NCBI GenBank assembly: GCA_035524255.1
Contig: DATKPG010000007.1
Coordinates: 3,270 to 67,269, forward strand
DNA length: 64,000 nucleotides
From: Smithella sp.
Lineage (GTDB): Bacteria > Desulfobacterota > Syntrophia > Syntrophales > Smithellaceae
Direction of reading: 5' to 3'
Part shown: positions 11,328 to 37,299 of the stretch, one piece after another
Position numbering within the stretch: the first letter of the stretch is position 1
Layout: each line of letters begins with the position of its first letter
Program-made: the position numbers and the translations under genes
Notes under the pieces: generated by a model
What the model was told of the DNA's origin: nothing
Databases searched by the model: none
Seen by the model: only the letters and a program-made list of their open reading frames with translations

Positions 11328-13031
11328 ATGAGAATCAAACAACGTCTTGGAGAAATACTTGTAAAACAAGGGGTTTTGACCGAAGAAATGCTCGCGAAAA
11401 TCCTGAATGATCAGAAGAAAACCAATTTAAAGATTGGCCAGTTTTTAATACGCCAGGGGATTCTTCAGGAAAAACAGATAATCGATTTATTATGCGAACA
11501 GCTCAATCTTCAGAAATATCAAGTAAACAAGTACCCTCTGGATCTGAATCTGGTCCGTTATATCCCCATTGATTTCGCGCAAAAAAATCAGGTTGTCCCT
11601 TTAAAATTGCAGGGGAATCTTTTAACCGTCGCGGTTGTTGATCCTCTGGAGACTAAAATTTTCGATTCCATTGAGAAATTAACCAACATGGAAGTTGAGC
11701 CCGTCATTTGTTCAGAAATGGAAATCAATCAGCTCATCAACAGCATGTACGGCATGCAATCCGATCTGGGCGATATCATGGAAGACATGGAGATAGAATC
11801 CAAGGAGAAGGAAGACTCCGAAACCCAGGAAGAAATCCAGATCACATCCCTGCAGGATCAGGCGGGAGAGGCGCTGGTTATCCGTTTGACAAATTCTATT
11901 TTCGCGCAGGCCGTTCGCAGCAGGGCAAGTGATATTCATATCTCTCCGCAACTAAATACCGTGCAGCTGCGTTTTCGCATTGACGGACGGCTGATTGAAA
12001 TGCCCTCGCCTCCCAAATCCATATTTTTATCCGTCATTGCCCGTCTCAAGATTATAGCCAACATGGATATCACCGTATCCAGAGTGCCTCAGGACGGCCG
12101 GTTCACGCTGAAACTGGAGAAAAAGGAAATTAATGTCAGGGTTTCCTCGATTCCCACCATATACGGAGAAAATATTGTCATGCGTCTCCTGGATATGAGC
12201 GCGGGTATTTATACCCTGGATAGTTTGGGCATGGATGCCGACGATATGGCTAAAATTGAAAGAATGAGCAATAAGCCTTACGGAATGATCTTAAGCACGG
12301 GACCGACAGGAAGCGGCAAAAGCACCAGTCTCTATGCGATCCTGAATTCCATCAACAAACCGGATATCAATATCATCACGCTGGAAGATCCGGTGGAATA
12401 CAGGGTCAATGATATCCGGCAGGTTCAGTTAAACACGAAGGCGGGTATGACTTTTGCCAGCGGTTTGCGTTCGATTCTCCGTCAGGATCCCGATGTCATA
12501 ATGGTCGGTGAGATCCGGGACGCGGAAACGGCCGCCGTATCGGTACAGGCGGCTCAAACAGGGCATAGAGTTCTCAGCACCGTTCATACGAATGATGCCG
12601 CGGGTGTCATCACGCGATTTATCGACATGGGCATTGAGCCTTTCCTGATCGCATCTGTTTTAATCGTTTCTTTCGCTCAAAGATTGGTGCGCACGGTTTG
12701 TCCTTATTGCAAGGAAAATTATGATCCACCCGTAAAAGCTCTTGAGCTTTTTGGAATAACGGAAAACGAAACAAAAAATGCTAATTTCCAGCGCGGTAAG
12801 GGCTGCAGCCAGTGCAAGAATACCGGCTACAAGGGAAGAACAGGCGTTTTTGAGGTTTTGGCTATTGATGAGATGATTCAGGATATGATTGTGAATCAAA
12901 GGTCGAGTCCCGAAATCACGCGTGCCGCGATAGCCGCCGGGAAATTAAAAACATTACAAAAACACGCGGCCCAAAAGGTTGTTCAGGGAATTACAACTCT
13001 GGAAGAAGCGGCTTCCGCCGTTATGACTTAA
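11328..13031 (+). CDS. GspE/PilB/MshE-family pilus extension ATPase with N-terminal MshEN-type domain
   Basis: 567 aa with Walker A 'GPTGSGKST', Asp box/Walker B 'DPDVIMVGEIRD', His box 'GHRVLSTVHTND' and a tetracysteine motif (CPYC ... CSQC). The N-terminal double 24-residue motif is described in the findings. Confidence 0.92.
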   Translation: MRIKQRLGEILVKQGVLTEEMLAKILNDQKKTNLKIGQFLIRQGILQEKQIIDLLCEQLNLQKYQVNKYPLDLNLVRYIPIDFAQKNQVVPLKLQGNLLTVAVVDPLETKIFDSIEKLTNMEVEPVICSEMEINQLINSMYGMQSDLGDIMEDMEIESKEKEDSETQEEIQITSLQDQAGEALVIRLTNSIFAQAVRSRASDIHISPQLNTVQLRFRIDGRLIEMPSPPKSIFLSVIARLKIIANMDITVSRVPQDGRFTLKLEKKEINVRVSSIPTIYGENIVMRLLDMSAGIYTLDSLGMDADDMAKIERMSNKPYGMILSTGPTGSGKSTSLYAILNSINKPDINIITLEDPVEYRVNDIRQVQLNTKAGMTFASGLRSILRQDPDVIMVGEIRDAETAAVSVQAAQTGHRVLSTVHTNDAAGVITRFIDMGIEPFLIASVLIVSFAQRLVRTVCPYCKENYDPPVKALELFGITENETKNANFQRGKGCSQCKNTGYKGRTGVFEVLAIDEMIQDMIVNQRSSPEITRAAIAAGKLKTLQKHAAQKVVQGITTLEEAASAVMT

Positions 13032-13050: not shown

Positions 13051-14271
13051 ATGCCCAAATATACTTACCGTGCCATTAATCAGGTTGGAGAGGAAGTTTC
13101 CGGGAATATAGAGGCGGAATCATCTGAAATCGCGAATTTCATGCTGATTTCCCGCGAACTTATTCCATCAAAAATTACGGAGCGGCAGGGGGGCAGTAAT
13201 TGGTTGGATGCCGTATCGGTGATGGGCAAAGTTAAAACGACGGATCTGATCATGTTTACAAAACAGTTCCATTCCATGCTCGTCGCGGGGATACCGATAT
13301 TAAGAATTTTGTCCATTCTGGAAGATCAGACAGAGAGCAAAATTTTGAAGCAGGGGATTACGCAAATTATTAAAGATATCAATCAGGGTTTGTCCCTTTC
13401 CGATTCCATGCAAAAACACCCCAAAATATTTGACCGCCTTTACTGCGATATGATCAGGGCGGGTGAAGTCAGCGGAAATGTGCCGGTTGTTTTAGAGCGG
13501 CTGATTTACATTGTTGAACATGAGGCAAAAGTCAGGGCGGATATAAAATCGGCGCTCAGGTATCCCATGATAGTGCTTATAGCCTTAACCGGCGCGTTTG
13601 TTTTTCTTTTAACTTTTATCATACCGGTATTTGCCACGATGTTCTCCCACACCGGTTTGGAGCTGCCGTGGCCGACAAGAATTTCCATGATGCTATCCAA
13701 TTTTATCCACAACTACTGGTATTTGATTATTGGCGCAATAGCCATCATTGTTTTTAGCTTGCGTTTATATTTTAAAACAAGCAACGGCAAATTCGTAAAG
13801 GATTCTCTTTTATTAGAATTGCCGATCATAGGGCCGGTATTCAAAAAAGCGGCTTTATCACGTTTTGCCAGTATATTTGCTATCTTACAAACAAGCGGCG
13901 TTCCCATTATGCAATCATTGACCATCCTTTCGGCTACCATGGGCAATGAGGCCCTGACGCGCACGTTTGATAGTATCCGTGAGCGCATTAAAGAAGGGGC
14001 AGGAATTTCAGCGCCGTTAAAATCGTCCAAATATTTTACCCCGATGGTTATTGATATGATAGCGATTGGCGAAGAATCCGGAAAAATTGACGAAATGATG
14101 AGGGCCGTCGCCATGCATTATGATAGTGAAGTTGAGTACGCGGTTAAAGCGCTTTCCGACGCGATTGGCCCTATTCTGATCGTTGGTTTAGCCGCGGTTG
14201 TGGGATTTTTTGCTTTATCCGTATTTATGCCGATGTGGGATCTTATGAAACTGGCAACGCATCAATTCTAA
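13051..14271 (+). CDS. PilC/GspF/MshG-family inner-membrane platform protein
   Basis: 406 aa with two GspF-type repeats ('FTKQFHSMLVAGIPILRIL', 'FASIFAILQTSGVPIMQSL') and three hydrophobic segments. Follows the ATPase gene. Confidence 0.92.
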   Translation: MPKYTYRAINQVGEEVSGNIEAESSEIANFMLISRELIPSKITERQGGSNWLDAVSVMGKVKTTDLIMFTKQFHSMLVAGIPILRILSILEDQTESKILKQGITQIIKDINQGLSLSDSMQKHPKIFDRLYCDMIRAGEVSGNVPVVLERLIYIVEHEAKVRADIKSALRYPMIVLIALTGAFVFLLTFIIPVFATMFSHTGLELPWPTRISMMLSNFIHNYWYLIIGAIAIIVFSLRLYFKTSNGKFVKDSLLLELPIIGPVFKKAALSRFASIFAILQTSGVPIMQSLTILSATMGNEALTRTFDSIRERIKEGAGISAPLKSSKYFTPMVIDMIAIGEESGKIDEMMRAVAMHYDSEVEYAVKALSDAIGPILIVGLAAVVGFFALSVFMPMWDLMKLATHQF

Positions 14272-14274
14272 TTG

Positions 14275-14384
14275 CCGGTCTAATCACCGGTCTAATCGCC
14301 GGTTCAGCCGCGGTTGTGGGATTTTTTGCTTTATCCGTATTTATGCCGGTATGGGATCTTATGAAACTGGCAACACATTATTAA
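14275..14384 (+). pseudogene. Fossil duplicate of the pilC/gspF 3' end
   Basis: 14298-14384 aligns by eye with 14196-14271 ('...gccgcggttgtgggattttttgctttatccgtatttatgccg.tgggatcttatgaaactggcaac.ca...'). It would encode ...AAVVGFFALSVFMPVWDLMKLATHY*. It is preceded by the tandem 11-mer ccggtctaatc(a/g) x2 and has no upstream coding body. Confidence 0.7.
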
Positions 14385-14421
14385 TGTAAAAACATTGATC
14401 AATGAAATAAGCTGATATTTG

Positions 14422-14450
14422 TTGACTTTTTACGCGGAAATAATTAAAAT
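14422..14450 (+). promoter_or_regulatory. Sigma-70-type promoter for the pilin array
   Basis: TTGACT (14422-14427), a 17-nt spacer, then TAAAAT (14445-14450), about 80 nt upstream of the first pilin ATG. No comparable motif was seen in front of pilin copies 2 and 3. Confidence 0.55.
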
Positions 14451-14529
14451 AAAAGATATTAATTTTGTAAATGAAGTCTTAATAAGTGATCACCAAAAAA
14501 ACTAACGGGCATGAAGAAAGGAGAGGAAT

Positions 14530-14907
14530 ATGTTAAAAAATGAGAAAGGTTTTACGTTGATTGAAATCATCGCGGTTCTGGTTATTTTAGGAATTTTGGC
14601 CGCGGTAGCCGTTCCGAGGTATTTAAGTCTGCTGGACCAGTCAAGAATCTCCGCGGCGCAGGGCGCTATTGCTGAATTAAAATCACGCGCGAGCGCTGAA
14701 TACGGCAAATTGCTTCTGTCGGGCTCCGGTGCGGATCCCGGAGAAGCCGCGGTTCAGGCTTCAATAAGCACGGATGTCGGCAGTGATTTTTCGGGTATTT
14801 CAATGGCCGCCAGCGGCAGTAATATCGCCTTTACAATTACAACTGTGAAAGGCGCCACTTTAAGCACAAACGCTACCGGAACCTGGTATTATCCGACCCA
14901 GAGTTAA
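14530..14907 (+). CDS. Type IV major pilin, copy 1 (class III signal peptide, N-methyl-Phe type)
   Basis: 125 aa with leader MLKNEKG|FTLIEIIAVLVILGILAAVAVP (Gly-1, Phe+1, Glu+5). RBS AAAGGAGAGG. No Cys; C-terminal ...WYYPTQS. Confidence 0.92.
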   Translation: MLKNEKGFTLIEIIAVLVILGILAAVAVPRYLSLLDQSRISAAQGAIAELKSRASAEYGKLLLSGSGADPGEAAVQASISTDVGSDFSGISMAASGSNIAFTITTVKGATLSTNATGTWYYPTQS

Positions 14908-14926
14908 GTAAATAAGCATTTATAGA

Positions 14927-14960
14927 AAATAGCGCGAATAGAAATTCGCGCTATTTTTTT
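14927..14960 (+). terminator. Rho-independent terminator after pilin copy 1
   Basis: Stem AAATAGCGCGAAT/ATTCGCGCTATTT with AGAA loop, followed by a T-run to 14960. Confidence 0.8.
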
Positions 14961-15011
14961 GCCGGCATTTCAATACACCTTGAAGCGTTTCTTTAAGAAA
15001 AAGGAGGAAAA

Positions 15012-15389
15012 ATGTTAAAAAATGAAAAAGGTTTCACGTTGATTGAAATCATCGCGGTTCTGGTTATTTTGGGAATTTTGGCTGCGGTGGCTGTTCCGAG
15101 GTATTTAAGTCTGCTGGACCAGTCAAGAATCTCCGCGGCGCAGGGCGCTATTGCTGAATTAAAATCACGCGCGAGCGCTGAATACGGCAAATTGCTTCTG
15201 TCGGGCTCCGGAGCGGATCCCGGAGAAGCCGCGGTTCAGGCTTCAATAAGCACGGATGTCGGCAGTGATTTTTCGGGCATTTCCATGGCCGCCAGCGGCA
15301 GTAATATCGCGTTTACTATTACCACGGTGAAAGGCGCCTCTTTAAGCACAAACGCCACCGGAACCTGGTATTATCCGACCCAGAGCTAA
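15012..15389 (+). CDS. Type IV major pilin, copy 2
   Basis: 125 aa, identical to copy 1 except residue 110 (Ser vs Thr). RBS AAGGAGG. Confidence 0.92.
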   Translation: MLKNEKGFTLIEIIAVLVILGILAAVAVPRYLSLLDQSRISAAQGAIAELKSRASAEYGKLLLSGSGADPGEAAVQASISTDVGSDFSGISMAASGSNIAFTITTVKGASLSTNATGTWYYPTQS

Positions 15390-15406
15390 ATAAAACCATT
15401 CAGGAG

Positions 15407-15435
15407 AAAAAAGCGTGATAACTTCACGCTTTTTC
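15407..15435 (+). terminator. Weaker terminator-like hairpin after pilin copy 2
   Basis: Stem AAAAGCGTGA/TCACGCTTTT with TAACT loop. The T-run is short (5) and is followed by CCCC. Confidence 0.55.
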
Positions 15436-15488
15436 CCCTGCTGATTTTATAGTTCATTAGAAGCATTTTTTAGCGACCAGGAGGAAAA

Positions 15489-15866
15489 ATGTTAAAAAAT
15501 GAAAAAGGCTTCACGTTAATTGAAATCATCGCGGTTCTCGTTGTTTTGGGAATTTTGGCCGCGGTGGCCGTTCCGAGGTATTTGAGTCTGCTGGATCAGT
15601 CAAGAATCGCGGCGGCACAGGGCGCCATTGCGGAATTTAAATCGCGCGCGAGCGGCGTGTATGCCAACCTGCTTCTGTCGGGCGCCGGTGCGGATCCCGG
15701 AGAAGCCGCGGTTCAGGCTTCAATCAATACGGATGTCGGCAGTGATTTTGCGGGTATTTCAATATCCGCCAGCGGCAGCAATATCGTGTTCACAATTACA
15801 ACCGTGAAAGGTTTCTCTTTAAGCACAAATGCCACCGGAACCTGGTATTATCCGATACAAAGTTAA
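15489..15866 (+). CDS. Type IV major pilin, copy 3 (diverged paralog)
   Basis: 125 aa with the same leader and length. It carries about a dozen substitutions (e.g. AEFKSRASGVYANLLLSGAG, ISISASGSNIVF, KGFSL, YYPIQS). RBS AGGAGG. Confidence 0.92.
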   Translation: MLKNEKGFTLIEIIAVLVVLGILAAVAVPRYLSLLDQSRIAAAQGAIAEFKSRASGVYANLLLSGAGADPGEAAVQASINTDVGSDFAGISISASGSNIVFTITTVKGFSLSTNATGTWYYPIQS

Positions 15867-15892
15867 ATTATTATAATGCACTTATGGAAAAG

Positions 15893-15923
15893 TAGCGTGA
15901 ATAGAAATTCGCGCTATTTTTTT
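15893..15923. terminator. Terminator between the convergent pilin array and the GT-C gene (possibly bidirectional)
   Basis: Stem TAGCGTGAAT/ATTCGCGCTA with AGAA loop, then T7. The same hairpin family follows copy 1. It sits 9 nt from the stop of the minus-strand gene at 15932. Confidence 0.75.
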
Positions 15924-15931
15924 GCTTGTTT

Positions 15932-18055
15932 CTAATTAAGATAGGAACATCTTGCGGCAATCGATAAATAATTTTCAATTCTGGGAACGTAAACGTGCAA
16001 ATTTTCATCCTTATTCAATTGCCGGATATATTCTTTTAAATTTAAAGAACCTTTTAAATACAGCAGGAAGCGAATTTCCTGACTTTGCATTTTTGCGTCT
16101 TTGATTTTTCCGTATAATTCAATGAGGGCCAGATTGGCATAAGCATTTTGAGGGGCAAGCTCTCTTACGGATTTCCAGTAATAGATGGCCTGGGCATAAT
16201 TATTTTTCAGGCGGCAGACCTCGGCCATAATTTCCAGCGCGTTTAGTGAATCCGGATCTTTCGCGAGAATTTTTTGGGCGAAATTTTTAGCGGCATCAAT
16301 TTTACCGTCTTTTAACAGAATAAAACTGTATAAATCCATTAGTTTGGAATTATCGGGATATTCTCTGAATTTATTTTCGATAATTTGTCCCGCCTGGCTG
16401 ATTTGATCATGACGGAGCTTTATCTTGGCCATATAGATATAATTGGGAATATGTTGAGGATTTGTTTTAGAGGATTTTATAAAGTAGTCCATGGCCAGAT
16501 CATCCTGCCTTTGGGTAAAATATAAAAGGCCCAGATTATATTCCTGAAGCGATAAAGATATATTGCTTCCTCCAAAATTATTCAGGCTCATCGCTTTTTC
16601 ATACTCTTTTAATCCTTTTTCATTTTCATGATAATTGCAGTAAATGCTGCCCAGCATGGCATGCGGCCTGCTCAATCCCGGAGACTTTTCAGCGTTATCA
16701 AACCACAGGGAAAAATCGTCGGAGAATATTTTATTGCGGCTGTAGGTAATGTCGCCCAGGCCGAATATGATGATGGCTATTCCAAAGGCGACGATAATCT
16801 GCATCAGCTTTTTGTAGGAGAAGTAATCAATAACATAAATGATAAACTCCGTGCAGGGAACAAACAAAAGCATGGACGGCAGGTAATTGCGGTAGTCGTA
16901 TATTAACTCCAGATTAAAAATGGAGCCTTCAATAATATGATTCAAAAAAAAGAAAATAACGCAAAAAGACGAGAGCGGGCGCTTACGGGATATATAAAGG
17001 GCAAATCCGATGATTAAAAATATCGTTAAAATTGACGGAATGGTCGTCCAGGGATGGATTAAGGAGCGGGAGACTTCAAAATCGTAGAGAAAAGTCAAGC
17101 GCGAACTGACCGGATAAAAAAGCAGTGAAAGATAAAACAGGATGACGCGGGGTTCGGTTAAAAGCCTTTGCATCATCGTGAAGCCGCGTATTTTATATCC
17201 GGCTGATAAATCGCGGAAACCCAGGAAATTGGAAAAACCGCTTGTATAAATAAATCCAATCACTAAAATCAGCAACAAAGGCAGCGCGGAAATCCTGATA
17301 CATTTTTTAATGTTTTCTTTAGTTACGCCCTGAATTAAGAATAAATCGAATAATAGAATACTGACCGGAAGCATCGCGGCGTTTTCTTTGGAAAGCACTC
17401 CGGCTAAACCCGCAGCCACGCACAGGATAAAAAACAGGATGGAAGAAGTTTTAGTTTTAGATAGTTGCGCGGATGTCCGGCCTTTGAGATAAAAATACAT
17501 GGACATGATATAAAACAGTCCAGCCATGGACGTATATCTCTGCACTATGTAGGTAACACAGGTAACGTGAAGGGGATTTAATGCCCATAAAAACGAAGCC
17601 AGCAGCGACACGGGGTAGGCAATATTTTGATATTGATCTTTCAGCCGCGGAAGCTTCAGCATGTTGTAAATAAATAAAAAAAGAAATACTGAAGTGAGGT
17701 AATGGATGATAAAATTAACCACATGAAATCCGAAGACATCCATTCCGCCCAATTTATAATTCAGGGCGAAGCTCAAAACCGGCAGGGGCCGCCATAATCT
17801 GTTCTGGCTAATATCATGTACATATTGTTTTATTTCCGGCCAGGAAAATGATTTTATCTGAGTATGCGGATTATTAACGATGTTGCCGAAATCATCAAAA
17901 TGCCAGTCGCCGTGAAAACTGTTGGAGTAAATAATAAATAATGCCGCGAACAGCGCGATAAACGTGAAAATATATTTATGGGATTCAGGGAAGTTTATAT
18001 TAACAGGCGGGGCAAAACCATTTTCTTCGGATGGCATGATAATCTCCTGACTCAT
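15932..18055 (-). CDS. TMTC/PMT-like GT-C-fold membrane glycosyltransferase fused to C-terminal TPR repeats (paralog type A, copy 1)
   Basis: 707 aa with many hydrophobic helices in the N-terminal ~450 aa. The first-loop motif 'SNSFHGDWHFDDFGNIVNNP' has an acidic DD as in PMT/TMTC loop 1. The C-terminal ~230 aa are TPR-like. Collinear with and clearly alignable to 22201-24288. Confidence 0.7.
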   Translation of the reverse strand: MSQEIIMPSEENGFAPPVNINFPESHKYIFTFIALFAALFIIYSNSFHGDWHFDDFGNIVNNPHTQIKSFSWPEIKQYVHDISQNRLWRPLPVLSFALNYKLGGMDVFGFHVVNFIIHYLTSVFLFLFIYNMLKLPRLKDQYQNIAYPVSLLASFLWALNPLHVTCVTYIVQRYTSMAGLFYIMSMYFYLKGRTSAQLSKTKTSSILFFILCVAAGLAGVLSKENAAMLPVSILLFDLFLIQGVTKENIKKCIRISALPLLLILVIGFIYTSGFSNFLGFRDLSAGYKIRGFTMMQRLLTEPRVILFYLSLLFYPVSSRLTFLYDFEVSRSLIHPWTTIPSILTIFLIIGFALYISRKRPLSSFCVIFFFLNHIIEGSIFNLELIYDYRNYLPSMLLFVPCTEFIIYVIDYFSYKKLMQIIVAFGIAIIIFGLGDITYSRNKIFSDDFSLWFDNAEKSPGLSRPHAMLGSIYCNYHENEKGLKEYEKAMSLNNFGGSNISLSLQEYNLGLLYFTQRQDDLAMDYFIKSSKTNPQHIPNYIYMAKIKLRHDQISQAGQIIENKFREYPDNSKLMDLYSFILLKDGKIDAAKNFAQKILAKDPDSLNALEIMAEVCRLKNNYAQAIYYWKSVRELAPQNAYANLALIELYGKIKDAKMQSQEIRFLLYLKGSLNLKEYIRQLNKDENLHVYVPRIENYLSIAARCSYLN

Positions 18056-18152
18056 GAAATATCGTTTGGACTGTATGTTTTTCTTTCATGATGATCCGTC
18101 CCCGGAAAGAGGGGCCGCGATCGAGGTACAGTTACATAATTTCATTCGAAAA

Positions 18153-20249
18153 TCAACGGCAGTATTTTCTTTCTTTAGCCCATGCAAGCGCTGTGCAGTT
18201 TCCCATTTTACACGCCATCCGCGCGTCATAACAGCCGGGCTCTTTGTCGCCCAGATTAAAGTAAGCGCCCCCCCGGTTATTATAGGCGTCGGCATAGTCC
18301 GGTTTCAGACGGATGGCCTCGTTAAAATCCTTAACGGCGCTCTGATACCGGCGAAGTTTAAAGTAAACGCCCCCCCGGTTGTTAAAAGCTTCGGCATAGT
18401 CCGGTTTGAGGCGCAAGGCCTGGTTGAAATCATCAATGGCGCTTTGAAACCGGCTCATTTTGAAATACGCGATTCCCCTGTTGTAGAAAAAACCCGCGTC
18501 ATTTGGTTTCAGGCGCAGGGCTTCATTAAAATCATTAATGGCATCCTGGTACCGGAAAAGACTTTGGTTGGCAGCCCCCCTGATATTATAGAAATCCGCG
18601 TCAGCCGGCTTAAGTCGTATGGCCTGATTATAATCTTTCAGGGCAAGTTCGTATTGGCCTAGCTTTGCGTAAGCAATCCCTCTATCCGAGTAGTAAGAAG
18701 GATCGTCCGGCCTTAAATGTATCGCTTTACTAAAATAATCCACGGCCTTTTGGTTCAAACCGAGTTTGATATGGATAATTCCCAGATTGTAATAAGCCTC
18801 GGCAAAATCAGGATTCAGGCGGATCGCCACATGATAGTCTGCAATGGCAGGCTTGTACTGGTCCAGCGCGGCATAAGAATTTGCCCTGTTGTTGTAGAAA
18901 AGAGCATTGTCCTGTATCAGGACAATGGCTTTATTATAATGATCAATGGCCTCTTTTATTTTTCCATCGGTAAAGAGGGCCAGACCTAAATTGTTATGCG
19001 CCAGAGCGTTATTCTTTGTTATCCGCAAATTATAATTCCAAAGCTTGATGCTGTTTTGCCAGTAAGAGCACTGCTGCCAGGTTATACATGACAAAACGGC
19101 AATGAAAAGCGCTCCCAGTGGAAATAAAATCTTTTTGCGCAGATTTTGGTGTGTGAAGAAAAGGGGGAAGCCCCACGCAAGCATTACGGCAATACCTATT
19201 GCGGGCAGATAATGGTAGCGGTTGGCCATGGCCTGTTCGCCTGATTGAACGATGCCGATAACCGGCAGAAGGGTTATCGCGTACCACAGCCATCCCACAA
19301 AAAGATACGGCCGACGTTTAACCGCCGCGATAACCAAAACGCTGATAACGATAATCAGAAGCGCGGCTCCAAGGAATTGCCCCGGTGAAATATAAGCAGG
19401 ATACGGATAGAAAACGGCAAGATCGCGGGGCCATAATGTTTTCTCCAGATAAGATACAAAAGAAACAGACGCGTTGGCGATCCGCAAACTAAAAGGAAAA
19501 TGTTTTACGGATGGATTGTACTGCGTATAAATCGTGATGACGGAAAAAAGCGCCGACAGGATAAAGAAGGGTATTTTTTCTTTCAGTTGCCATGAAAAAC
19601 AATGGCCGTCCCCAAACTCAAAACGTTTCAGCGGCCAATAATCCAGAAGGATCATCACAACGGGCAGGGTGACAACCATGGGCTTGCTCATAAGCGCGCA
19701 CGCAAAGGACATCAAAACCGGCAGATATCTTCTGGTGATGGGTTTTTCCGTGTAATAGACATACAGGCACAAAGTCAGCATCCAGAAAAAGGCGCTTAAG
19801 ACGTCTTTACGCTCGGCTATCCAGGCAACCGATTCCACATGCATAGGATGCACGGCGAAAAACGCGGCGACAAACGCGCTTTTCCAGATCGTTCCTGTCA
19901 TGCGGCAAAATAGCCAGAAGAGTAATAGCGTGCTCAATATATGCAGGATAAGATTGGTGATATGATAGCCGCCGGCGTTTAGACCGAATAGCTGATGATC
20001 CAGCATGAGTGACAGCCATATCAGAGGATGCCATAACGAATCGGCATACGTTGTGGCAAACGCCCAGCAAATTCCGGAAAGTGTTATCCCGGACTGGATA
20101 TGGCTGTTGTCAGTTACATAAAGCGGATCATCGAAATTGATAAAGTCATAAAGATTGACCTGCCAGAAAACGGCAAAGGTGATAACGGTCAACGACAGAT
20201 AAACGATTAGTTTCTGTCTGTCGGAACTTATATTTATCCTGCTTAACAT
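18153..20249 (-). CDS. TMTC/PMT-like GT-C-fold membrane glycosyltransferase with long TPR array and Cys-rich C-terminal tail (paralog type B, copy 1)
   Basis: 698 aa with loop-1 motif 'WQVNLYDFINFDDPLYVTDNSHIQSG' and a polytopic N-domain. About 8 TPRs ('A..DYN.AI.L.P..A.AYNNRG.AY'). Tail 'GCYDARMACKMGNCTALAWAKERKYCR'. Confidence 0.7.
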   Translation of the reverse strand: MLSRINISSDRQKLIVYLSLTVITFAVFWQVNLYDFINFDDPLYVTDNSHIQSGITLSGICWAFATTYADSLWHPLIWLSLMLDHQLFGLNAGGYHITNLILHILSTLLLFWLFCRMTGTIWKSAFVAAFFAVHPMHVESVAWIAERKDVLSAFFWMLTLCLYVYYTEKPITRRYLPVLMSFACALMSKPMVVTLPVVMILLDYWPLKRFEFGDGHCFSWQLKEKIPFFILSALFSVITIYTQYNPSVKHFPFSLRIANASVSFVSYLEKTLWPRDLAVFYPYPAYISPGQFLGAALLIIVISVLVIAAVKRRPYLFVGWLWYAITLLPVIGIVQSGEQAMANRYHYLPAIGIAVMLAWGFPLFFTHQNLRKKILFPLGALFIAVLSCITWQQCSYWQNSIKLWNYNLRITKNNALAHNNLGLALFTDGKIKEAIDHYNKAIVLIQDNALFYNNRANSYAALDQYKPAIADYHVAIRLNPDFAEAYYNLGIIHIKLGLNQKAVDYFSKAIHLRPDDPSYYSDRGIAYAKLGQYELALKDYNQAIRLKPADADFYNIRGAANQSLFRYQDAINDFNEALRLKPNDAGFFYNRGIAYFKMSRFQSAIDDFNQALRLKPDYAEAFNNRGGVYFKLRRYQSAVKDFNEAIRLKPDYADAYNNRGGAYFNLGDKEPGCYDARMACKMGNCTALAWAKERKYCR

Positions 20250-20316
20250 AATCGAATTCAGTTTCCCTTATAATAATGTCCCGCATCCCATGCTGCACGT
20301 TAAACCCTGAACCGGT

Positions 20317-22158
20317 TTAACGGCAGAGGCCTTTAACTTTCGCGGCTTCCAGCGTTTTGCAATTTCCCAGTTTACACGCCAATTGCGCGTCATAACAGCC
20401 CTGTATTTTATCGCCCCGGTTTAAGTAAGATTCTCCCCGGCCGTTGTAAGCGCAGGCATTGTCCGGATTCAGTCGGATCGTTTTATTAAAATCATCAACG
20501 GCGCTTTGATACCGGTGAAGGCTATTGTAAACGGTTCCCCTTTTGCAGTAGGCATCGGCGTAAACCGGTTTCAGAGCAATGGCTTTATTGTAATCTTCAA
20601 TGGCCTGTTGAACCTGCCCCGTGAAAGCATAAGCATCTCCCCTGAAGGCGTAGGAATCCGCGTAGTCCGGTTTCAGAGCTATGGCTTTATTAAAGTCCGT
20701 AAGCGCCGGTTGATATCGGCCGAGCTGGGTGTACGCTCCGCCCCTGTTGTTGTATAAAACATAACCCACGTTGTTTCGCACCGTATCCGGCATCAGGCGG
20801 ATGGCTTCGCTGTAATGATACACAGCTTCTTCGATTTTGCCTTCACGGGCAAAAGCCGGAGCGATGTTGTTATGCGCGAGATAATTATTCTGTGTCACCC
20901 GCAGGGCATGGTTAAAGAGCGTGATGCTGTCCCTCCAATAACCGCATTGCCGCCACGCCATCAATGACAACAGGCCGATGAAAATCAATCCCGCCGGGAA
21001 TAAAATCCTTTTGCGCGCGTTTTCGCTTTTAAAAAAAAGCGGTATGCCCCACGCGAGCATTACGGCAATGCCGATAGAAGGCAGATATTGATAGCGGTCG
21101 GCTCCTGCGAAGCCTCCCACCTGAAGGATTCCGATGACCGGCAGAAGCGTTATCGCGTACCACAGCCATCCTACAAAAAGATACGGCAGGCGTCTCCTCA
21201 TCATAATGACGGCGGCGCTGATAACCAGAATCCCAAGGGCGGCGCCTGTGACCTGCCAGTGGGGAAGTTGTTCAGAAAATGGATAGAAAATTGTCAAATC
21301 ATAAGGCCATAATGTTTTCTCCAGATAGGTCATCAAAGAAACAGGCATGTTAGCCAGACGCGAAGCCAGGGGAAAAACTTTTACAGATTGACTGTCCGGA
21401 GAATAAAGTGTGATGATAATAACGGCTGACGACAAGATCAAAAAAGGTATTTTTTCCCATAGCGGCCATAATGAAACTTTAACCGGCAAAATTTCCTTTA
21501 AATTGTTTTCGGTTTTTTTTGCTTCAAAACGTCCAAGCGGCCAGTAATCCAGAAGAAGCATAACAACGGGCAGGGTGACAACCATGGGCTTGCTCATAAG
21601 GGCGCAGGCAAAGGAAATCACAACCGGCAGATATCTTCTGAGGAGGGGTTTTTCCGTGTAGTAGACATAAAGGCACAAAGTCAGCATCCAGAAAAAAGCG
21701 CTTAATACATCTTTGCGCTCGGCAATCCACGCGACCGATTCCACATGAAGCGGGTGAAGCGCGAAGAGCGCGGCGACAAAAGCGCTCTTATATATCGCTT
21801 GGGTCATGCGGTTAAAAAGCCAGAAGAGCAAAAGCGCGCTGAAAATATGCAGGATAAGGTTGGTGATATGATAGCCGCCTGCATTTGGGCCTGCCAGTTT
21901 ATAATCCAGCATAAAAGACATCCACACCAGAGGATGCCATAAATCGAAATACTTTGTGCCAAACGCCCAGCGAATACTGTCCGGCGTTATTCCGGACTTA
22001 ATATGGCTGTTCCCCGTTACATAAACCTGATCGTCGAGATTAACAAAGTCATAAAGATTTACCTGCCAGAAAACGGCAAGCGTAATAATCGTTAAAGCGA
22101 TATAAATAAACAGAGTGTTTGTCTGATGATCAGAGCCGATATTTATCTTCTTTAACAT
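20317..22158 (-). CDS. TMTC/PMT-like GT-C-fold membrane glycosyltransferase with TPRs and Cys-rich tail (paralog type B, copy 2)
   Basis: 613 aa with loop-1 'WQVNLYDFVNLDDQVYVTGNSHIKSG', collinear with 18153-20249 but with fewer TPRs. Tail 'GCYDAQLACKLGNCKTLEAAKVKGLCR'. Confidence 0.7.
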   Translation of the reverse strand: MLKKINIGSDHQTNTLFIYIALTIITLAVFWQVNLYDFVNLDDQVYVTGNSHIKSGITPDSIRWAFGTKYFDLWHPLVWMSFMLDYKLAGPNAGGYHITNLILHIFSALLLFWLFNRMTQAIYKSAFVAALFALHPLHVESVAWIAERKDVLSAFFWMLTLCLYVYYTEKPLLRRYLPVVISFACALMSKPMVVTLPVVMLLLDYWPLGRFEAKKTENNLKEILPVKVSLWPLWEKIPFLILSSAVIIITLYSPDSQSVKVFPLASRLANMPVSLMTYLEKTLWPYDLTIFYPFSEQLPHWQVTGAALGILVISAAVIMMRRRLPYLFVGWLWYAITLLPVIGILQVGGFAGADRYQYLPSIGIAVMLAWGIPLFFKSENARKRILFPAGLIFIGLLSLMAWRQCGYWRDSITLFNHALRVTQNNYLAHNNIAPAFAREGKIEEAVYHYSEAIRLMPDTVRNNVGYVLYNNRGGAYTQLGRYQPALTDFNKAIALKPDYADSYAFRGDAYAFTGQVQQAIEDYNKAIALKPVYADAYCKRGTVYNSLHRYQSAVDDFNKTIRLNPDNACAYNGRGESYLNRGDKIQGCYDAQLACKLGNCKTLEAAKVKGLCR

Positions 22159-22200
22159 AGACAGTTTTAGTTCCTCTGATTTTGGAGAAAAAAGCCCGAA

Positions 22201-24313: not shown

Positions 24314-25249
24314 TTACCCTTTCCGGGATTTGGAAAAATATTCGATCATGGGAAATAATGCGGCCAGGATTATTTCCACAAAGGTTATCAAAAAACGGGT
24401 CAGGATGGTTCCGAAAATAACGACCGGTTGCGCCATAAATGCCGGAAGAATGAGGAGGGCAAAGCCCTCACGGACGCCGATGCCTGCAGGGGCAAAAAGG
24501 GCGGCTACGCCGATAAGCGATGCGGCATAGTAAACGCCGGTTAACGTGAGAAAAAGATTCCAGCCGACAGGGTGGAAACAATTAAAGGCAAAATAAATTC
24601 CCAAACCGTAAGGCAAACCGATTATAATATTGGCAAGGACAAATTTAATCAGCAATCCGTAGGTGGGCAATTCAGTAAGCGGTTCTTTATGGATCAGCTT
24701 AAAAATAACGGCGGAAATCTTTTTCAGAACGGGAGGATATAATATCAGCAGAAAAAATATAACAAAAGAGACCGCGGCCGTTCGCACATAACCCGGCATG
24801 GTTTTAGGAAGAAAGGCGATGGAAATTAAAACAATAATAAACGCCGCCGTCATCGAAGTAATGAATTCGACTCCGGTCGCGAAGGCGACAACCCGTTTGC
24901 TCACGTTGCCGTACAAATCCATTCGCACAAGAAATAAACCGACTTTGCCCGGTATGTATTTCCCCAGTTGAGATAAACTCCAACATTTGGCCGTCGGCAG
25001 AAAAGAAGCTTTGAGGCCGAACGACGCGGCCAGACGAAACCAGATGAATATCTGCAACAGATAAGATATAAGAAAGGATAATATGCTGTAGAATAAATAG
25101 ATCCACTCTAAATCATATTGGAAGCGGCGTATGTCCGAAAAATTTAAATATATATAATAGCCGACGAAAAAAAATACCAGAAGCAAAAGCAGTCTGCTGT
25201 ACCATTTTCTGATATTCGGAGAAATGATTAATCGTTTAAGCTTCATCAT
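24314..25249 (-). CDS. Flippase-like polytopic membrane protein (UPF0104 / LPG_synthase_TM-type domain)
   Basis: 311 aa with ~8 hydrophobic segments and the motif 'LSQLGKYIPGKVG', characteristic of the MprF-flippase-like family as I recall it. No soluble domain. Confidence 0.55.
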   Translation of the reverse strand: MMKLKRLIISPNIRKWYSRLLLLLVFFFVGYYIYLNFSDIRRFQYDLEWIYLFYSILSFLISYLLQIFIWFRLAASFGLKASFLPTAKCWSLSQLGKYIPGKVGLFLVRMDLYGNVSKRVVAFATGVEFITSMTAAFIIVLISIAFLPKTMPGYVRTAAVSFVIFFLLILYPPVLKKISAVIFKLIHKEPLTELPTYGLLIKFVLANIIIGLPYGLGIYFAFNCFHPVGWNLFLTLTGVYYAASLIGVAALFAPAGIGVREGFALLILPAFMAQPVVIFGTILTRFLITFVEIILAALFPMIEYFSKSRKG

Positions 25250-25339
25250 GGATGCCTTCGCTCTCTTCGCATTATTTGTATATATTGAACTCCGCAGAAT
25301 TTTTTACAAGCATCAATCCGGCTCTGTTAGCCTGTTCTA

Positions 25340-26140: not shown

Positions 26141-26157
26141 ATCTCCATCCGGCGCGT

Positions 26158-27300: not shown

Positions 27301-27995
27301 AAAACGTCCTTCATTTTTTCATAATCATCGATAGCCTGTTCGTAATCTTCCGGACGGCCGATATCCATCCAGTATCCGTTATAGGCGTGACAATGGACAG
27401 GCCTGTTGAGCAATAGAAGTTTCTGAACCAGATCGGGAAAATCAAACCGGCCTTTAGCCGGAATAAGAGGCAAAACCCTGCTCGAAAGAATATAAATTCC
27501 CATGCTGACATTGAAATCAAGGGAGGGTTTCTCCCGAAATCCGGTGAGTCTCCCGTCTTTGGAGTAATTAAGCGTTCCGTAATTCACGTTTTGTGTTCGT
27601 TTATGGGTGGCGATGGTTAAGTCGGCTTTTTTGTCTTTATGAATTTTAAAAAGTTTTTTTAATGACAAATCCGTCAGAATATCGCCGTTCATCATCAGGA
27701 AGTCATCATCAAGATTTTTCATGTGCCTGATCGGCGCGGCCGTGCCCAGCGGTTCTTTTTCAATATAATACTCGATGGGTATTCTCCATTTTTCGCCGCT
27801 TCCGAAAAAGGCGACAAAAAGATCGTGTTGATGCCCGATGGCCATCGTTATTTTTTTAAATCCGTTTTTCTTCAATTGCTTTACAACGACTTCCAAAATC
27901 GGACAATCGCCGATGGGCATGAGCGGTTTGGGCAATACGGTCGTGTAGGGTTTTAATCTTGTGCCTCTTCCTCCAGCCAGAATAATCGCCTGCAT
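27297..27995 (-). CDS. Sugar-1-phosphate nucleotidyltransferase (NTP_transferase family)
   Basis: 232 aa with N-terminal 'MQAIILAGGRGTRLKPYTTVLPKPLMPI' signature and '...YWMDIGRPEDY'. Confidence 0.88.
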   Translation of the reverse strand: MQAIILAGGRGTRLKPYTTVLPKPLMPIGDCPILEVVVKQLKKNGFKKITMAIGHQHDLFVAFFGSGEKWRIPIEYYIEKEPLGTAAPIRHMKNLDDDFLMMNGDILTDLSLKKLFKIHKDKKADLTIATHKRTQNVNYGTLNYSKDGRLTGFREKPSLDFNVSMGIYILSSRVLPLIPAKGRFDFPDLVQKLLLLNRPVHCHAYNGYWMDIGRPEDYEQAIDDYEKMKDVL

Positions 27996-33301: not shown

Positions 33302-33778
33302 ATGATAAGAAGAAGACAAATCGTTAAAAACAGACTGAAAAATAATAGTGGTTTCACAATGATTGAGACTATTGCCGTAATGGTCATTCTCATCATTTTA
33401 GCCGCCATCGCCGTCACCCGCGGCCTGTCCACGCAAAATGATCTTATTCCTCAGGCGGATACCGTGAAAACGCACCTGAGATTTGCCGAGATGAAAGCGT
33501 TGAATGATGATGTCAATACCTGGAGCGTGGCTTTTACACCCACTAACTATACCCTGTCCTGCACGGGTTCAAACTGCCCTACAAAGGCAATACAACTGCC
33601 GTCTGAAAGTTCCAACACCCATACTTTCCCAAGCGATGTTACGGTAAATACGGCTGCGAACGTTACTTTTGATAGTTGGGGGAGCCCCGGCGGTAGCAAT
33701 GTGGTCATCAATCTTGTGCAGGGCTCTCAGACCATTCCCATTACTATTGCCGCAAATACAGGATATATAACGCCATGA
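33302..33778 (+). CDS. Minor pilin / pseudopilin (GspH/FimT-like size class)
   Basis: 158 aa with prepilin leader MIRRRQIVKNRLKNNSG|FTMIETIAVMVILIILAAIAV (Gly-1, Phe+1, Glu+5). Confidence 0.85.
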   Translation: MIRRRQIVKNRLKNNSGFTMIETIAVMVILIILAAIAVTRGLSTQNDLIPQADTVKTHLRFAEMKALNDDVNTWSVAFTPTNYTLSCTGSNCPTKAIQLPSESSNTHTFPSDVTVNTAANVTFDSWGSPGGSNVVINLVQGSQTIPITIAANTGYITP

Positions 33779-34686
33779 AAACAATGAAAAATATTTTAGA
33801 GCGCGGGTTCACTCTGATAGAAGTGATCATTACCCTTGTCGCGATCGCGCTTGTCGCGGCCATGATGGCAGTCTATTTCGGAACATCAATTGAGCAAAGC
33901 TCTTCACCCATTGCCAAATTAAAAGCGGCAGAAAACCTGAATAAGATTATGGAAAAAATAACTGCCAACTATAATAATACTCCCGCGACCTGGAGCCCCA
34001 GCACCGCCTACACGTTGAGTTCCAATACGGATCCCCCCACCGTCGTTCTTCCCACGGAGGCCAATAGAAACGGAGTTCAGTATATTTGCACAACGCAGGG
34101 TACCAGCGGCGCCACTGAACCCACGTGGCCCATAACGGTCGGTTCTACGGTAAACGATGGCGGTGTAGTATGGACTTTCAGCGGCCCCACGCCGCCAAAT
34201 CTTTGGACGTCGGGTGCGTCATATACCTTAAATCAGATTATTTATCCTGCCAACGGGTATCAGTATATTTGCACCGTCGCCGGAACCAGCGGCACCACTG
34301 AACCCACGTGGCCTACAACGATAGGTTCAACAATTACCGAAACCACAGGGTCCACTCCCAAGGTGCAATGGAAATGCTACGGTCACCAGCCGCTGACTGC
34401 CTTGCAGACCAGAATCGGCGCGGAAGTAACGGGGGGGCAGGATTATACGCAGACCTTTAACGGCGTTTCCATAAGCTATCGCGTGATTCAGAACAGGTTC
34501 ATCACATTCGATGCCGGTGCGAACATCACGGAAGATGACACTTGCACGTCGAGTTCATGCAACATGGTAATATCCGGAGTGAATACTAACGTATATGGGA
34601 GATATCTCAAGGTTACTATTGGACTGCCGCTCACGGCATCTCCCAGAACGACGGATACCCTGACGACTTTATTTGTAAGGCGGTGA
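33775..34686 (+). CDS. Minor pilin with two internal carbohydrate-binding-like repeats
   Basis: 303 aa with leader MKTMKNILERG|FTLIEVIITLVAIALVAA. Two ~60-aa repeats end in 'YICT..GTSG.TEPTWP...GST'. Start overlaps the upstream stop (ATGA). Confidence 0.85.
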   Translation: MKTMKNILERGFTLIEVIITLVAIALVAAMMAVYFGTSIEQSSSPIAKLKAAENLNKIMEKITANYNNTPATWSPSTAYTLSSNTDPPTVVLPTEANRNGVQYICTTQGTSGATEPTWPITVGSTVNDGGVVWTFSGPTPPNLWTSGASYTLNQIIYPANGYQYICTVAGTSGTTEPTWPTTIGSTITETTGSTPKVQWKCYGHQPLTALQTRIGAEVTGGQDYTQTFNGVSISYRVIQNRFITFDAGANITEDDTCTSSSCNMVISGVNTNVYGRYLKVTIGLPLTASPRTTDTLTTLFVRR

Positions 34687-34689
34687 AAA

Positions 34690-35244
34690 ATGGTTCGTGA
34701 AATTACCGGGCGCCTGTTGGATGAGAAGGCATTCACACTGATTGAAATGATTGTCTCCCTGGTCCTGATCAGCATTTTTGCCACGGCTGCGGGGTTGGGC
34801 ATTGCTAAAATCAGTCAAGGCTATATTTTCGCGAAACAGGACACGGAAACCCAGCAGAAAGCGCAGGTCGCCATGGCCAGAATGGTCAAGGAACTGGGCT
34901 GGGCTGCGCCGCAGACCAGTACGGCAACCGCCATCACGGCAGCCACGGCATCTTCGGTTACTTACACACGGCCGCAATCCATAGGTTCAAGCACATTTGT
35001 GACAAATACTCTGACTATCTCCGGCTCTTCAGTCCTACTAAGCGGAAACGCCAGCGGAACCCTCGTTAACAATGTTGTAAGCGGCTCTTCCTCATTTGCT
35101 TATTATGATACCAACGGCGCGACGCTGGCCACGCCGGTGGCGCTTTCCAGAATCCGGCGGATTGATATCACGCTAAGTCTGACCGGCGCGGACAATTTAA
35201 CATCCCAGTTTACAAACAGCGTGTGGATAAATGAATCCTATTAG
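34690..35244 (+). CDS. Minor pilin (PilW/GspJ-like)
   Basis: 184 aa with '...LLDEKA|FTLIEMIVSLVLISIFATAAG'. It has Ala rather than Gly at -1, with Phe+1 and Glu+5 present. Confidence 0.75.
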   Translation: MVREITGRLLDEKAFTLIEMIVSLVLISIFATAAGLGIAKISQGYIFAKQDTETQQKAQVAMARMVKELGWAAPQTSTATAITAATASSVTYTRPQSIGSSTFVTNTLTISGSSVLLSGNASGTLVNNVVSGSSSFAYYDTNGATLATPVALSRIRRIDITLSLTGADNLTSQFTNSVWINESY

Positions 35245-35262
35245 CCATTAAGGGAGAATAAT

Positions 35263-37299
35263 ATGTGCCTTAAAAATAACAAAGGGAGTATCCTGATTAC
35301 ACTCATCGTTACCATACTTATTATGGCGGTGCTTGGTCTGGGCATCTACGGTCTGTTTTCATCCTCCACCATCAGTGAATTTCTGTCCAACAGAAACGAT
35401 AACGCGTATCAACTCGCGAAAGCCGGCATTCGTTACGCCGTCAACACCAACGGCGCCAACCTGGGCAACTTTTTTATGCCCGATGCCAAGCATGTATTTA
35501 ACCTTGCCAGAAACGGCCAGGTCATTACATCCACGGGTATCGTGAATGCGGGCACTTTTCTGGAGGCCAGGAGAGTGCTTACCTATACTCTTACGGGAGC
35601 ACTATACGATCCTCGTATTCATCAGAATGATCTTGTCGTCCCAACCAATAACAATATTGTCTCCAATCCAACGGGCGCGATCGCGATCAGCGGAACAACG
35701 ATCACGCTGGGCGGAAGCCAAAGCCCCGGCGTCTCTCAAAGTTATGCCGCCATCTGGTATAACGGGAATAATGCCAATGCCAGCTGCAACTCAGGCAACT
35801 GCTTATTCGGCACGGGCCTGCGAGCGTATTTTGAATTCCAGTTTCCCGGTACTACGGGTTCGGGCGATGGATTTACTTTCGCGATTATGAGCGCGCTGAC
35901 CAATACAAATACCCGCGTAGGGGGGTTTTCTAAAAATGACTTCCCCGGCACTTATACGCGTACAGACGGCACCCAAACATCGGTTGCCGGCGGTGAATTA
36001 CAGGGGTATGCCGGACCGGGCAATACGTATCTGTCGAATGGAACCGATGGCCAGGGGCTCCGGCCGCCGAAAATGGCCCTGCAGTTTGATACCTTTACAA
36101 ATTTGACCGGTTCACCCATATATCTCGCGGGGACCAGGAATGATCCGTCCTGTACGGCGACTTACGGCGATTATGTGGCCCTCCAGTTCTGGGGCGATTA
36201 TTTAACCGGCCAAAATACGCCAGCGCTTAATTATTCCGGAGGCGGGACGCGTATTTTCCCCTTGAGCAGTTTTGACGACAATATCCATGGCGCATATCCG
36301 GCAAGCGCCTATGGATCGTCCACCTCCTGTGTCAACGCGACGGCAAACGTAACCACAACACCCGCGACATCAATATCATGTCCGCCTGTAAATGGTCTCG
36401 GCGCGATGTGTTATTTACTGGAAGATCATCAGGTTCGTAGTTGCAGGATAGAAATTACCCGTCCGACGAGCGTTTCAAACAGCGGCGCCTGCGCGGGTAT
36501 GTACGCGTATCAAATCAATGTCTGGATCGAAGTTACAGGCAGTCTTTCCGGTCTTACGTTAAGCCATCTCCAGGATGTGCTTGTGCCGTTTGTCGATCCT
36601 AATACTCCCGCTATTTCTAAAAAAATCAGCCAGACGGTCTGCTTTACCTCGGCAGACAACTCTAACCTGGCAACCATCATTTGGGGTTTTACGCAAGGCA
36701 CGGGCGATGCCGTTCAGCAGGTGCCGATTACAAACTCCGATGTCTTTTTCCCGAATGCGGGGTCGTCAACATGCACTTATTCAATTAACCCCTCGAACGC
36801 GTATTTTCCGGTAGCGGGCGGATCAGGAACCGTTGCCGTGTCGTCTTCAAGCAATGTTTGTTACTGGGCGGTATCGAGCCTTGCCAGCTGGATCACCATT
36901 ACCTCAACTCCGTTATTCGGCTTAGGCAATGGAACGGTCAGCTATACCGTCGCCGCCAACAATACAGGAGCTATCCAGATCGGTGTTATGAACATAGCCG
37001 GACAGACCTTCACCGTCACACAATGCGGGTCTCTCTCCAGTTACACGATAACGAATAGTACAGGAGCGACAATTTACAGGCAGTCAGGAGGGAATTGTTC
37101 AAACGGAAATGCTATCTCTAACGGCAGCACGTATACACTATCTTCCAGTGGTACGGTTACGTTTTATCAAACCAGGGGCGGCGGTAACAGCTGCCAGGGC
37201 AATACAATTACCGTAACCGGCGCTCAGGCTCAGGCCGCGGATACTAATTGCGACGGTAACGTACAGATAAATAGTTCCTGGAGTTTGGTAGACAAATAA
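35263..37299 (+). CDS. Large PilX/GspK/MshQ-like pilus-associated protein with lectin-like (ConA-fold-like) and BACON/Ig-like modules; candidate tip adhesin
   Basis: 678 aa. The N-terminus MCLKNNKG|SILITLIVTILIMAVLGLG is a pilin-like helix lacking Glu+5, as in GspK/PilX. 'YFEFQFPGTTGSGDGFTFAI...ALQFDTFTN...NDP' is legume-lectin-like. 'CTYSINPS...GGSGTVAVSSSSNVCYWAVSS.ASWITIT...GNGTVSYTVAANNTG...GQTFTVTQ' follows. Confidence 0.7.
   Translation: MCLKNNKGSILITLIVTILIMAVLGLGIYGLFSSSTISEFLSNRNDNAYQLAKAGIRYAVNTNGANLGNFFMPDAKHVFNLARNGQVITSTGIVNAGTFLEARRVLTYTLTGALYDPRIHQNDLVVPTNNNIVSNPTGAIAISGTTITLGGSQSPGVSQSYAAIWYNGNNANASCNSGNCLFGTGLRAYFEFQFPGTTGSGDGFTFAIMSALTNTNTRVGGFSKNDFPGTYTRTDGTQTSVAGGELQGYAGPGNTYLSNGTDGQGLRPPKMALQFDTFTNLTGSPIYLAGTRNDPSCTATYGDYVALQFWGDYLTGQNTPALNYSGGGTRIFPLSSFDDNIHGAYPASAYGSSTSCVNATANVTTTPATSISCPPVNGLGAMCYLLEDHQVRSCRIEITRPTSVSNSGACAGMYAYQINVWIEVTGSLSGLTLSHLQDVLVPFVDPNTPAISKKISQTVCFTSADNSNLATIIWGFTQGTGDAVQQVPITNSDVFFPNAGSSTCTYSINPSNAYFPVAGGSGTVAVSSSSNVCYWAVSSLASWITITSTPLFGLGNGTVSYTVAANNTGAIQIGVMNIAGQTFTVTQCGSLSSYTITNSTGATIYRQSGGNCSNGNAISNGSTYTLSSSGTVTFYQTRGGGNSCQGNTITVTGAQAQAADTNCDGNVQINSSWSLVDK

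Follow-up and report, generated by a model that had tools for sequence, protein, structure and literature searches.

The 64,000-nucleotide stretch of Smithella sp. DNA analysed here (the window), which comes from a 3.28-Mb metagenome-assembled genome (MAG) of 46 contigs, carries three pilin genes in tandem that probably form a functional array of MshA-like type IVa major-pilin genes at the end of a Smithella-like pilus assembly operon. The first two copies differ by a single residue, and the comparison with related species supports the view that purifying selection keeps them as essentially one protein. The third copy is, judged from its sequence, a conserved variant subunit.

The three open reading frames (ORFs) start at 14530, 15012 and 15489, and each encodes 125 residues. 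Their starts are separated by 482 nt (copies 1 and 2) and 477 nt (copies 2 and 3), in agreement with the period of ~480 bp given in the initial annotation. A position-by-position comparison of copies 1 and 2 revealed 16 differences in 378 nt, of which 15 are synonymous third-position changes and one, ACT to TCT, leads to the replacement T110S. This reproduces exactly the count on which the initial annotation was built. The identical central block that it placed at ~130 nt is, however, shorter: the longest difference-free run covers 119 nt (nucleotides 82 to 200 of the coding sequence) and is marginal in a permutation test (p ~0.03). Copy 3 is more diverged, as had been noted: it is 46 nt and 16 amino acids away from copy 1, and 47 nt and 15 amino acids away from copy 2. 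Most of these replacements are located in the sheet or the second half of helix alpha-1, and they bring two extra aromatic residues. With an omega (dN/dS) of ~0.15, they agree with the earlier proposal that copy 3 encodes a variant subunit. All three products lack Cys and end in YYP(T/I)QS, again as first described, and the peptides GATLSTNATGTWYYPTQS, GASLSTNATGTWYYPTQS and GFSLSTNATGTWYYPIQS tell them apart.

Two antisense ORFs overlap the array (14502-14708 and 14993-15190, both on the minus strand, 68 and 65 aa). Their first 61 residues are identical in protein despite six nucleotide differences, all of them transitions. They were treated as probably spurious, because they share their wobble positions with the pilin frame and have no counterpart in copy 3.

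The selective regime acting on copies 1 and 2 was explored using the Nei-Gojobori method, which gave a dS of 0.183, a dN of 0.0035 and an omega of 0.019, with a binomial p of 9e-9 for the synonymous excess. The pair is an outlier, since all other paralogue and orthologue pairs in the pilin clade have omega values between 0.13 and 0.43. Orthologues at a dS of 0.22 to 0.23 carry 15 to 18 replacements, compared with the single one that separates copies 1 and 2, and Fisher tests of this pair against three reference pairs gave p values of 0.002 to 0.025. The near-identity of the two proteins is therefore selected, given that orthologues at a similar synonymous distance differ by 15 to 18 residues. 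The fast divergence between species thus makes the one-protein conclusion stronger than the sequence of the window alone allowed.

When the changes were polarised with copy 3 as the reference, ~7 fell on copy 1 and ~8 on copy 2. With this even split neither gene looks like a decaying duplicate, and both have been evolving under constraint. Moreover, the persistence of synonymous differences argues that identity is held by selection on the product and not by ongoing homogenisation of the DNA. Codon adaptation showed no consistent direction towards common codons (summed ln relative synonymous codon usage of -1.8 versus +1.0 over the 15 sites), and the whole-gene means are alike. The earlier proposal of long-term purifying selection is upheld as far as selection is concerned, but "long-term" is not. 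The dS between copies 1 and 2 is just ~0.4 of that between the lineage of the window (W) and its sister lineage (J) at the flanking genes pilB and pilC (0.48); at the GT-C/TPR gene on the other side the W-J value is 0.61.

The array is real and not an artefact of assembly, because an independent assembly matches it perfectly and the sister lineage has the same arrangement. The independent assembly, deposited at ENA from another sample (L040), is 100% identical to positions 14611-18389 of the window, that is, over 3779 nt that include the greater part of copy 1, all of copies 2 and 3 with the two spacers, and the gene that follows. It starts exactly at the first base of the 119-nt identical block. 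In the sister lineage, contigs from three JGI samples carry pilB, pilC, three 125-aa pilin genes and the convergent GT-C/TPR gene.

Two short ENA contigs, L039 (ERZ27256511, 618 nt) and L041 (ERZ27256600, 623 nt), look like loops: the two ends of each are identical over 141 nt, and their periods of 477 and 482 nt are exactly those of the repeat units in the array. Each holds one hybrid copy-2/copy-1 gene that is a perfect mosaic of the two alleles, with the same type of spacer on both flanks. They were not counted as proof of recombinants, because merging of low-k bubbles in a collapsed repeat could yield them. These loops and the start point of L040 would be expected from unequal crossing-over, and equally from a de Bruijn assembler working on a partly collapsed repeat.

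The assignment of the products as pilins is based on both sequence motifs and predicted structure. All three copies begin with the prepilin leader MLKNEKG/FTLIEIIAVLVILGILAAVAVP, which has seven residues, F at +1, E at +5 and a G/FTLIE processing site. The prepilin motif PF07963 was matched with 35.5 and 32.6 bits (cut-off 21.2) and TIGR02532 with 32.8 bits (cut-off 16.3). An AlphaFold2 model of copy 1 calculated with 80 homologues reached a pLDDT of 91.4 and displays the pilin lollipop fold, with a helix at residues 10-64, a short helix at 72-78 and strands at 87-95, 98-106 and 109-119. The top structural match in Foldseek is the gonococcal pilin 1ay2, with a probability of 0.96 but a TM score of only 0.45 and an E value of 0.045. 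By sequence, the top match in the PDB is the MshA major pilin 9lab (E 1.3e-11), restricted to the N-terminal helix (residues 2-66). Close homologues are labelled Smithella sp. or, when they come from JGI, "MSHA pilin protein MshA".

The absence of Cys from all three copies means that there is no C-terminal D-region disulfide, a feature that is not universal among type IV pilins. We have filed the three genes as MshA-like type IVa major pilins, without assigning them to MSHA proper. The major-pilin role is predicted from their position after pilB and pilC, from the strong Shine-Dalgarno sequences and terminators, and from the three separate minor-pilin-like genes found elsewhere in the window. 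Since Ser and Thr make up 22% of the pilins, O-glycosylation is a reasonable guess.

Pilins of the electrically conductive type (e-pilins) are recognised empirically by a content of aromatic residues of at least 9% of the mature protein and by the absence of an aromatic-free gap of more than 40 residues (10.1101/479683). As in the e-pilins of Geobacter and Syntrophus aciditrophicus treated there, the Smithella proteins are type IVa pilins, come from a syntroph of the same order as the latter, and have no aromatic-free gap longer than 40, the largest being 28. They differ in having a mature chain of 118 aa with a beta-sheet head and in their aromatic content of 6.8% (copies 1 and 2) and 8.5% (copy 3). 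An e-pilin reading was rejected because both values fall below 9%.

Expression signals are distributed unevenly over the array. The initial annotation recognised a sigma-70 promoter only before copy 1, and this was borne out: the candidate at that position has 10 of 12 matches, versus 7 to 8 of 12 for the best sigma-70-type matches in the inter-pilin spacers. Its hexamers and their spacing are kept upstream of the first pilin gene in five species (W, J, G018, G004 and G010). Inspection of the spacers by eye showed no sigma-54-type GG-N10-GC element. Each of the three copies has its own Shine-Dalgarno sequence (GGAG or AGGAGG, 6 to 8 nt before the ATG) and is followed by a terminator-like hairpin, as the initial annotation had it. 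The hairpins have z scores of -4.7 to -6.4, none of 200 shuffles was equally stable, and each is preceded by an A-tract and followed by a T-run. A consensus terminator scanner listed only the third on its own. Given the A-tract upstream, the hairpin after copy 1 is possibly bidirectional. An Rfam scan of positions 14200-16000 returned nothing above the gathering scores, and its Thr_leader match (30.8 bits versus 55) is merely the terminator.

The spacers themselves are conserved among relatives. Those of J, G018 and G010 are almost identical (L033 3896-4000 and 4379-4484, and the spacers of L009 and L012) and share the hairpin and the motif GAAGCATTTTTTAGC located ~10-25 nt before the Shine-Dalgarno sequence, which argues for a function of the spacers. 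Compared with synonymous sites in the pilin genes they seem to be the better conserved, and this suggests an unrecognised regulatory or RNA-processing element.

Because no promoter-like site is visible in the spacers, a single transcript start with partial termination or processing is the likeliest arrangement. Transcription would begin at the conserved promoter before copy 1, and at each hairpin some transcripts would end, or processed transcripts would be stabilised, leading to a graded supply in which copy 1 equals or exceeds copy 2 and copy 2 equals or exceeds copy 3. Copies 1 and 2 together may raise or secure the supply of the main subunit, and copy 3 could enter the same filament in smaller amounts or act as an alternative subunit.

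The history of the array was examined across the genus. Of 36 species of Smithella, 8 lack a close homologue of this pilin, a single copy is present in 15, two copies in 11 and three in 2. These counts are lower bounds, because several arrays end at contig breaks. Multiplicity is thus not confined to the window, as it would be if relatives carried a single copy: 13 of the 36 species have two or three copies, and copies found on the same contig are adjacent. Within W, copies 1 and 2 are 16 nt apart and copies 1 and 3 are 46 nt apart, and comparisons between W and J give 68 to 85 nt. In a maximum-likelihood tree the three W copies form one clade (support 97/96), and approximately unbiased (AU) tests reject a clade of the third copies of W and J (p 0.0009) as well as a clade of all last copies (p 0.0006), the tested groups having been named after the distances were seen. 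The single clade and the rejection of positional orthology indicate that the W copies were re-duplicated or homogenised within their lineage.

The paralogues of the relatives are mosaics. In J, copies 1 and 2 are near-identical at both ends and in the spacers that follow them (102 of 104 nt), with 22 differences in the middle of the gene, including 9 replacements. In G018 and G010, the second copies have orthologous 5' and central parts, and their 3' thirds resemble the first copy of their own genome. Segment-wise switches of the nearest neighbour were observed among these paralogues, and identity-run tests gave p values of 0.004 to 0.007 for copies 1 and 2 of J, 0.0001 to 0.001 for copies 1 and 3 of J, and 0.0008 to 0.005 for G010. 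For the window, a simple conversion from copy 3 was rejected, because positions shared by copies 2 and 3 are interleaved with positions at which copy 3 stands alone. Since paralogues cluster within genomes and the pairs of relatives are mosaic, the locus family appears to evolve by repeated tandem duplication or unequal crossing-over together with partial gene conversion.

Another type of pilin, with the same N-terminal helix and a different head that contains Cys pairs (...C...CGS(Y)), is found as tandem pairs on L024 (G013) and L025 (G011), which belong to other species of the genus. More than one type of pilin has thus undergone tandem duplication in Smithella.

Several points weigh against the interpretation of the array as a functional source of one main subunit. 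Nine residues separate copies 1 and 2 of the sister lineage (omega 0.43), so that two identical subunits are not a general rule. At the observed distance the open frames would escape nonsense changes by chance with a probability of 0.05 to 0.22, and the retention of open frames is by itself weak evidence. Product amounts that decrease downstream would weaken a simple "double dose" explanation, and three strong hairpins without a promoter in the spacers could leave copies 2 and 3 barely transcribed. Moreover, the window genome taken alone would be compatible with gene conversion or lineage-specific re-duplication, the 119-nt block being marginal.

Among the alternatives, one unlikely account is that the redundancy is transient. 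Copy 2 would then be a fairly recent lineage-specific duplicate of no benefit, replacements would be purged as dominant-negative poisons of assembly, and the array would shrink again by recombination. It draws on the variation of copy number in the genus from 0 to 3, with one copy in 15 of the 36 species, on the single clade of the W copies, which makes them young or homogenised, and on the not improbable survival of open frames by chance. However, an array of three genes is also kept in the sister lineage, where three samples agree in it, the changes are even over both copies, and a Shine-Dalgarno sequence and a hairpin are kept at each. A dS of 0.18, or ~0.4 of the species distance, also represents a long survival for an unstable direct repeat.

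A more speculative view, to which we likewise assign a low probability, treats the array of this free-living syntroph as a contingency locus driven by recombination. Cells with 2, 3, 4 or more copies, and cells with hybrid copy-2/copy-1 genes, would arise continually by unequal crossing-over, giving the population standing variation in pilin dose and surface. Such events would have left their mark in the L039 and L041 loops and in the break of L040 where the identical block begins. Selection on the product would keep the main copies identical, and synonymous divergence would slow recombinational loss.

It is quite improbable that copy 3 or copy 2 builds a second fibre or acts under other conditions. 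Copy 3 has the necessary divergence, with its 15-16 replacements and two extra aromatic residues, and a precedent exists in Legionella pneumophila, where only one of the adjacent major-pilin paralogues PilA1 and PilA2 is reported to be the pilus subunit (PMC13170364). This explanation is, however, inapplicable to copies 1 and 2, which are one conservative residue apart; no separate promoter is visible for copy 3, and a single assembly machine adjoins the array.

A variation cassette, in which the downstream copies serve as recombination donors to an expressed copy 1 and vary the pilus surface as in the pilE/pilS system of Neisseria, is very unlikely. The mosaic identity of the relatives' paralogues and the hybrid genes of L039 and L041 would fit, but all copies are complete (start codon, leader, Shine-Dalgarno sequence and terminator), unlike the truncated silent pilS. 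Exchange between copies 1 and 2 would vary nothing, since they encode the same protein, and the hybrid contigs loop at exactly one repeat period, possibly as collapsed-repeat artefacts. Finally, there is hardly any chance that the assembler joined variants of one pilin gene from different strains into an array: several relatives' arrays do lie at contig ends and loop contigs exist, but the three spacers differ from one another, L040 is identical over 3779 nt and the sister-lineage contigs from three samples are alike.

The preferred reading, a functional three-gene array, fits with the surroundings of the pilins (Table 1). The gene order that leads to the array comprises a PilM-like gene (5131), small genes, a secretin gene (8002), a gene for an AAA_22 ATPase of the MshM/ExeA-like type (9693), the assembly ATPase gene (11328), the platform gene (13051) and then the pilins. 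The secretin passed the PilQ subfamily model (313.7 versus 284.35) and failed the MshL model TIGR02519 (112 bits versus a cut-off of 250). The gene for a PilD-type prepilin peptidase is located on another contig of the MAG (C31; PF01478, 86.8 bits).

Table 1. Positions in the window of the pilin genes, their putative expression signals and neighbouring features.
Feature	Position	Strand	Evidence and remarks
Pilus assembly ATPase, PilB/MshE type, with N-terminal MshE-related c-di-GMP-binding motif	11328..13031	+	Pfam T2SSE 439 bits, MshEN 66.7 bits; NCBIfam NF053729 52.9 versus cut-off 38
Platform protein, PilC/GspF/MshG type	13051..14271	+	Pfam T2SSF 192.6 bits in two stretches; TIGR02120 348 bits, below cut-off
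Non-coding duplicate of pilC 3' end	14291..14378	+	88-nt direct repeat of 14175-14262, 92% identity
Sigma-70-type promoter candidate, TTGACT-17-TAAAAT	14422..14450	+	10/12 matches, best of region
Conserved 5' leader with Shine-Dalgarno sequence AAAGGAG	14451..14529	+	Alignment of upstream regions; ~80 nt, kept in five species
Pilin copy 1	14530..14907	+	125-aa ORF; leader MLKNEKG, mature 118 aa, T110; PF07963 35.5 bits versus cut-off 21.2
Hairpin and T7 run after copy 1 (putative intrinsic terminator or attenuator)	14924..14962	+	-21.5 kcal/mol, z -4.69; 95% identical to hairpin after copy 3
Pilin copy 2	15012..15389	+	125-aa ORF; S110; 16 nt from copy 1, 15 synonymous
Hairpin and T5 run after copy 2	15408..15434	+	-21.1 kcal/mol, z -6.41
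Pilin copy 3	15489..15866	+	125-aa ORF; predicted variant subunit; 15-16 replacements versus copies 1/2, omega 0.13-0.16, two extra Phe
Hairpin and T7 run after copy 3, between convergent pilin and GT-C/TPR genes	15885..15925	+	-20.1 kcal/mol
Three prepilin-like minor pilin genes (33302-35241) and a 678-aa gene	33302..37299	+	PF07963 in all three; weak pilin matches; rest of pilus cluster

The duplicate of the pilC 3' end lies shortly behind the pilC stop codon and just upstream of the pilin promoter, and is a recombination scar. The sister lineage (L033) has no such duplicate, and its spacer between pilC and the first pilin gene measures 151 nt versus 258 nt here, which leaves ~107 nt extra in the window. 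Of the two repeat copies, the downstream, non-coding one has a 3' flank that can be aligned with the genuine end of pilC in the sister lineage.

On the other side of the array, the minor-pilin-like genes are separated from the major pilins by a 17-kb glycosylation island on the opposite strand that consists of GT-C/TPR and sugar genes. This island (15932-24288 and 24314-32857, both on the minus strand) contains four paralogous polytopic membrane proteins with TPR tails, for which weak PMT_2 matches were obtained, followed by sugar-modification genes.

The closest known system is the MSHA pilus of Vibrio cholerae and Shewanella (mshI-J-K-L-M-N-E-G). The assembly genes have the same order, with an MshE-type ATPase that bears the c-di-GMP motif followed by the pilins, and both the top PDB sequence match and the JGI names of homologues point to MshA. 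In contrast, the similarity to MshA is confined to the N-terminal helix, and the secretin scores as PilQ and not as MshL. The MSHA loci have one mshA flanked by dissimilar minor pilins, whereas here three near-identical major-pilin genes stand together and the minor pilins lie 17 kb away behind the glycosylation island.

Adjacent pilin paralogues are also known from Synechocystis and Xylella (pilA1/pilA2 in both) and from Thermus, where PilA4 and PilA5 are used alternatively. Like these pairs and that of Legionella, the Smithella locus has at least two full-length major-pilin-like genes side by side at one pilus locus. The known paralogues are, however, distinct in protein and role, whereas copies 1 and 2, in spite of their dS of 0.18, still yield one subunit in which a single residue of 125 differs.

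Gene conversion can make bacterial paralogues evolve in concert, as exemplified by tufA and tufB. The pilins resemble such genes in that paralogues group by genome and not by position and in that identity is segmental and mosaic in the relatives, and differ from them in that the synonymous differences between copies 1 and 2 have not been erased. For the archaellin (flaB1/B2/B3) and flagellin arrays, experiments have established the stoichiometry of the copies and what each of them does. These arrays share with the locus described here the co-oriented tandem subunit genes of one filament, the upstream promoter and, as proposed here, the joint incorporation of major and minor variants. They belong to another filament family, and the roles proposed for the Smithella copies are predictions from the genes.

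Adjacent pilin paralogues, concerted evolution and multi-copy filament arrays are thus already known, and the Smithella array is a fresh example and not a new system; the understanding of how type IV pili work is unchanged by it. Our literature search found no paper on tandem pilins in Smithella, and one survey covers PilA for conductivity only (PMC13685792).

For the pili of syntrophic Syntrophales, a role in attachment and a possible role in conducting electrons are under discussion, and MAG surveys usually score one PilA per genome. Many Smithella carry two or three tandem major-pilin genes, and because fragmented assemblies tend to break or collapse such arrays, both pilin copy number and pilin diversity are underestimated. 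Copies 1 and 2 offer a clean natural case of one protein made from two genes (omega 0.02) while the orthologues of neighbouring species diverge fast. The contrast argues for a need to keep the subunits of a single cell alike, probably together with the glycosylation that the adjacent GT-C enzymes would give them.

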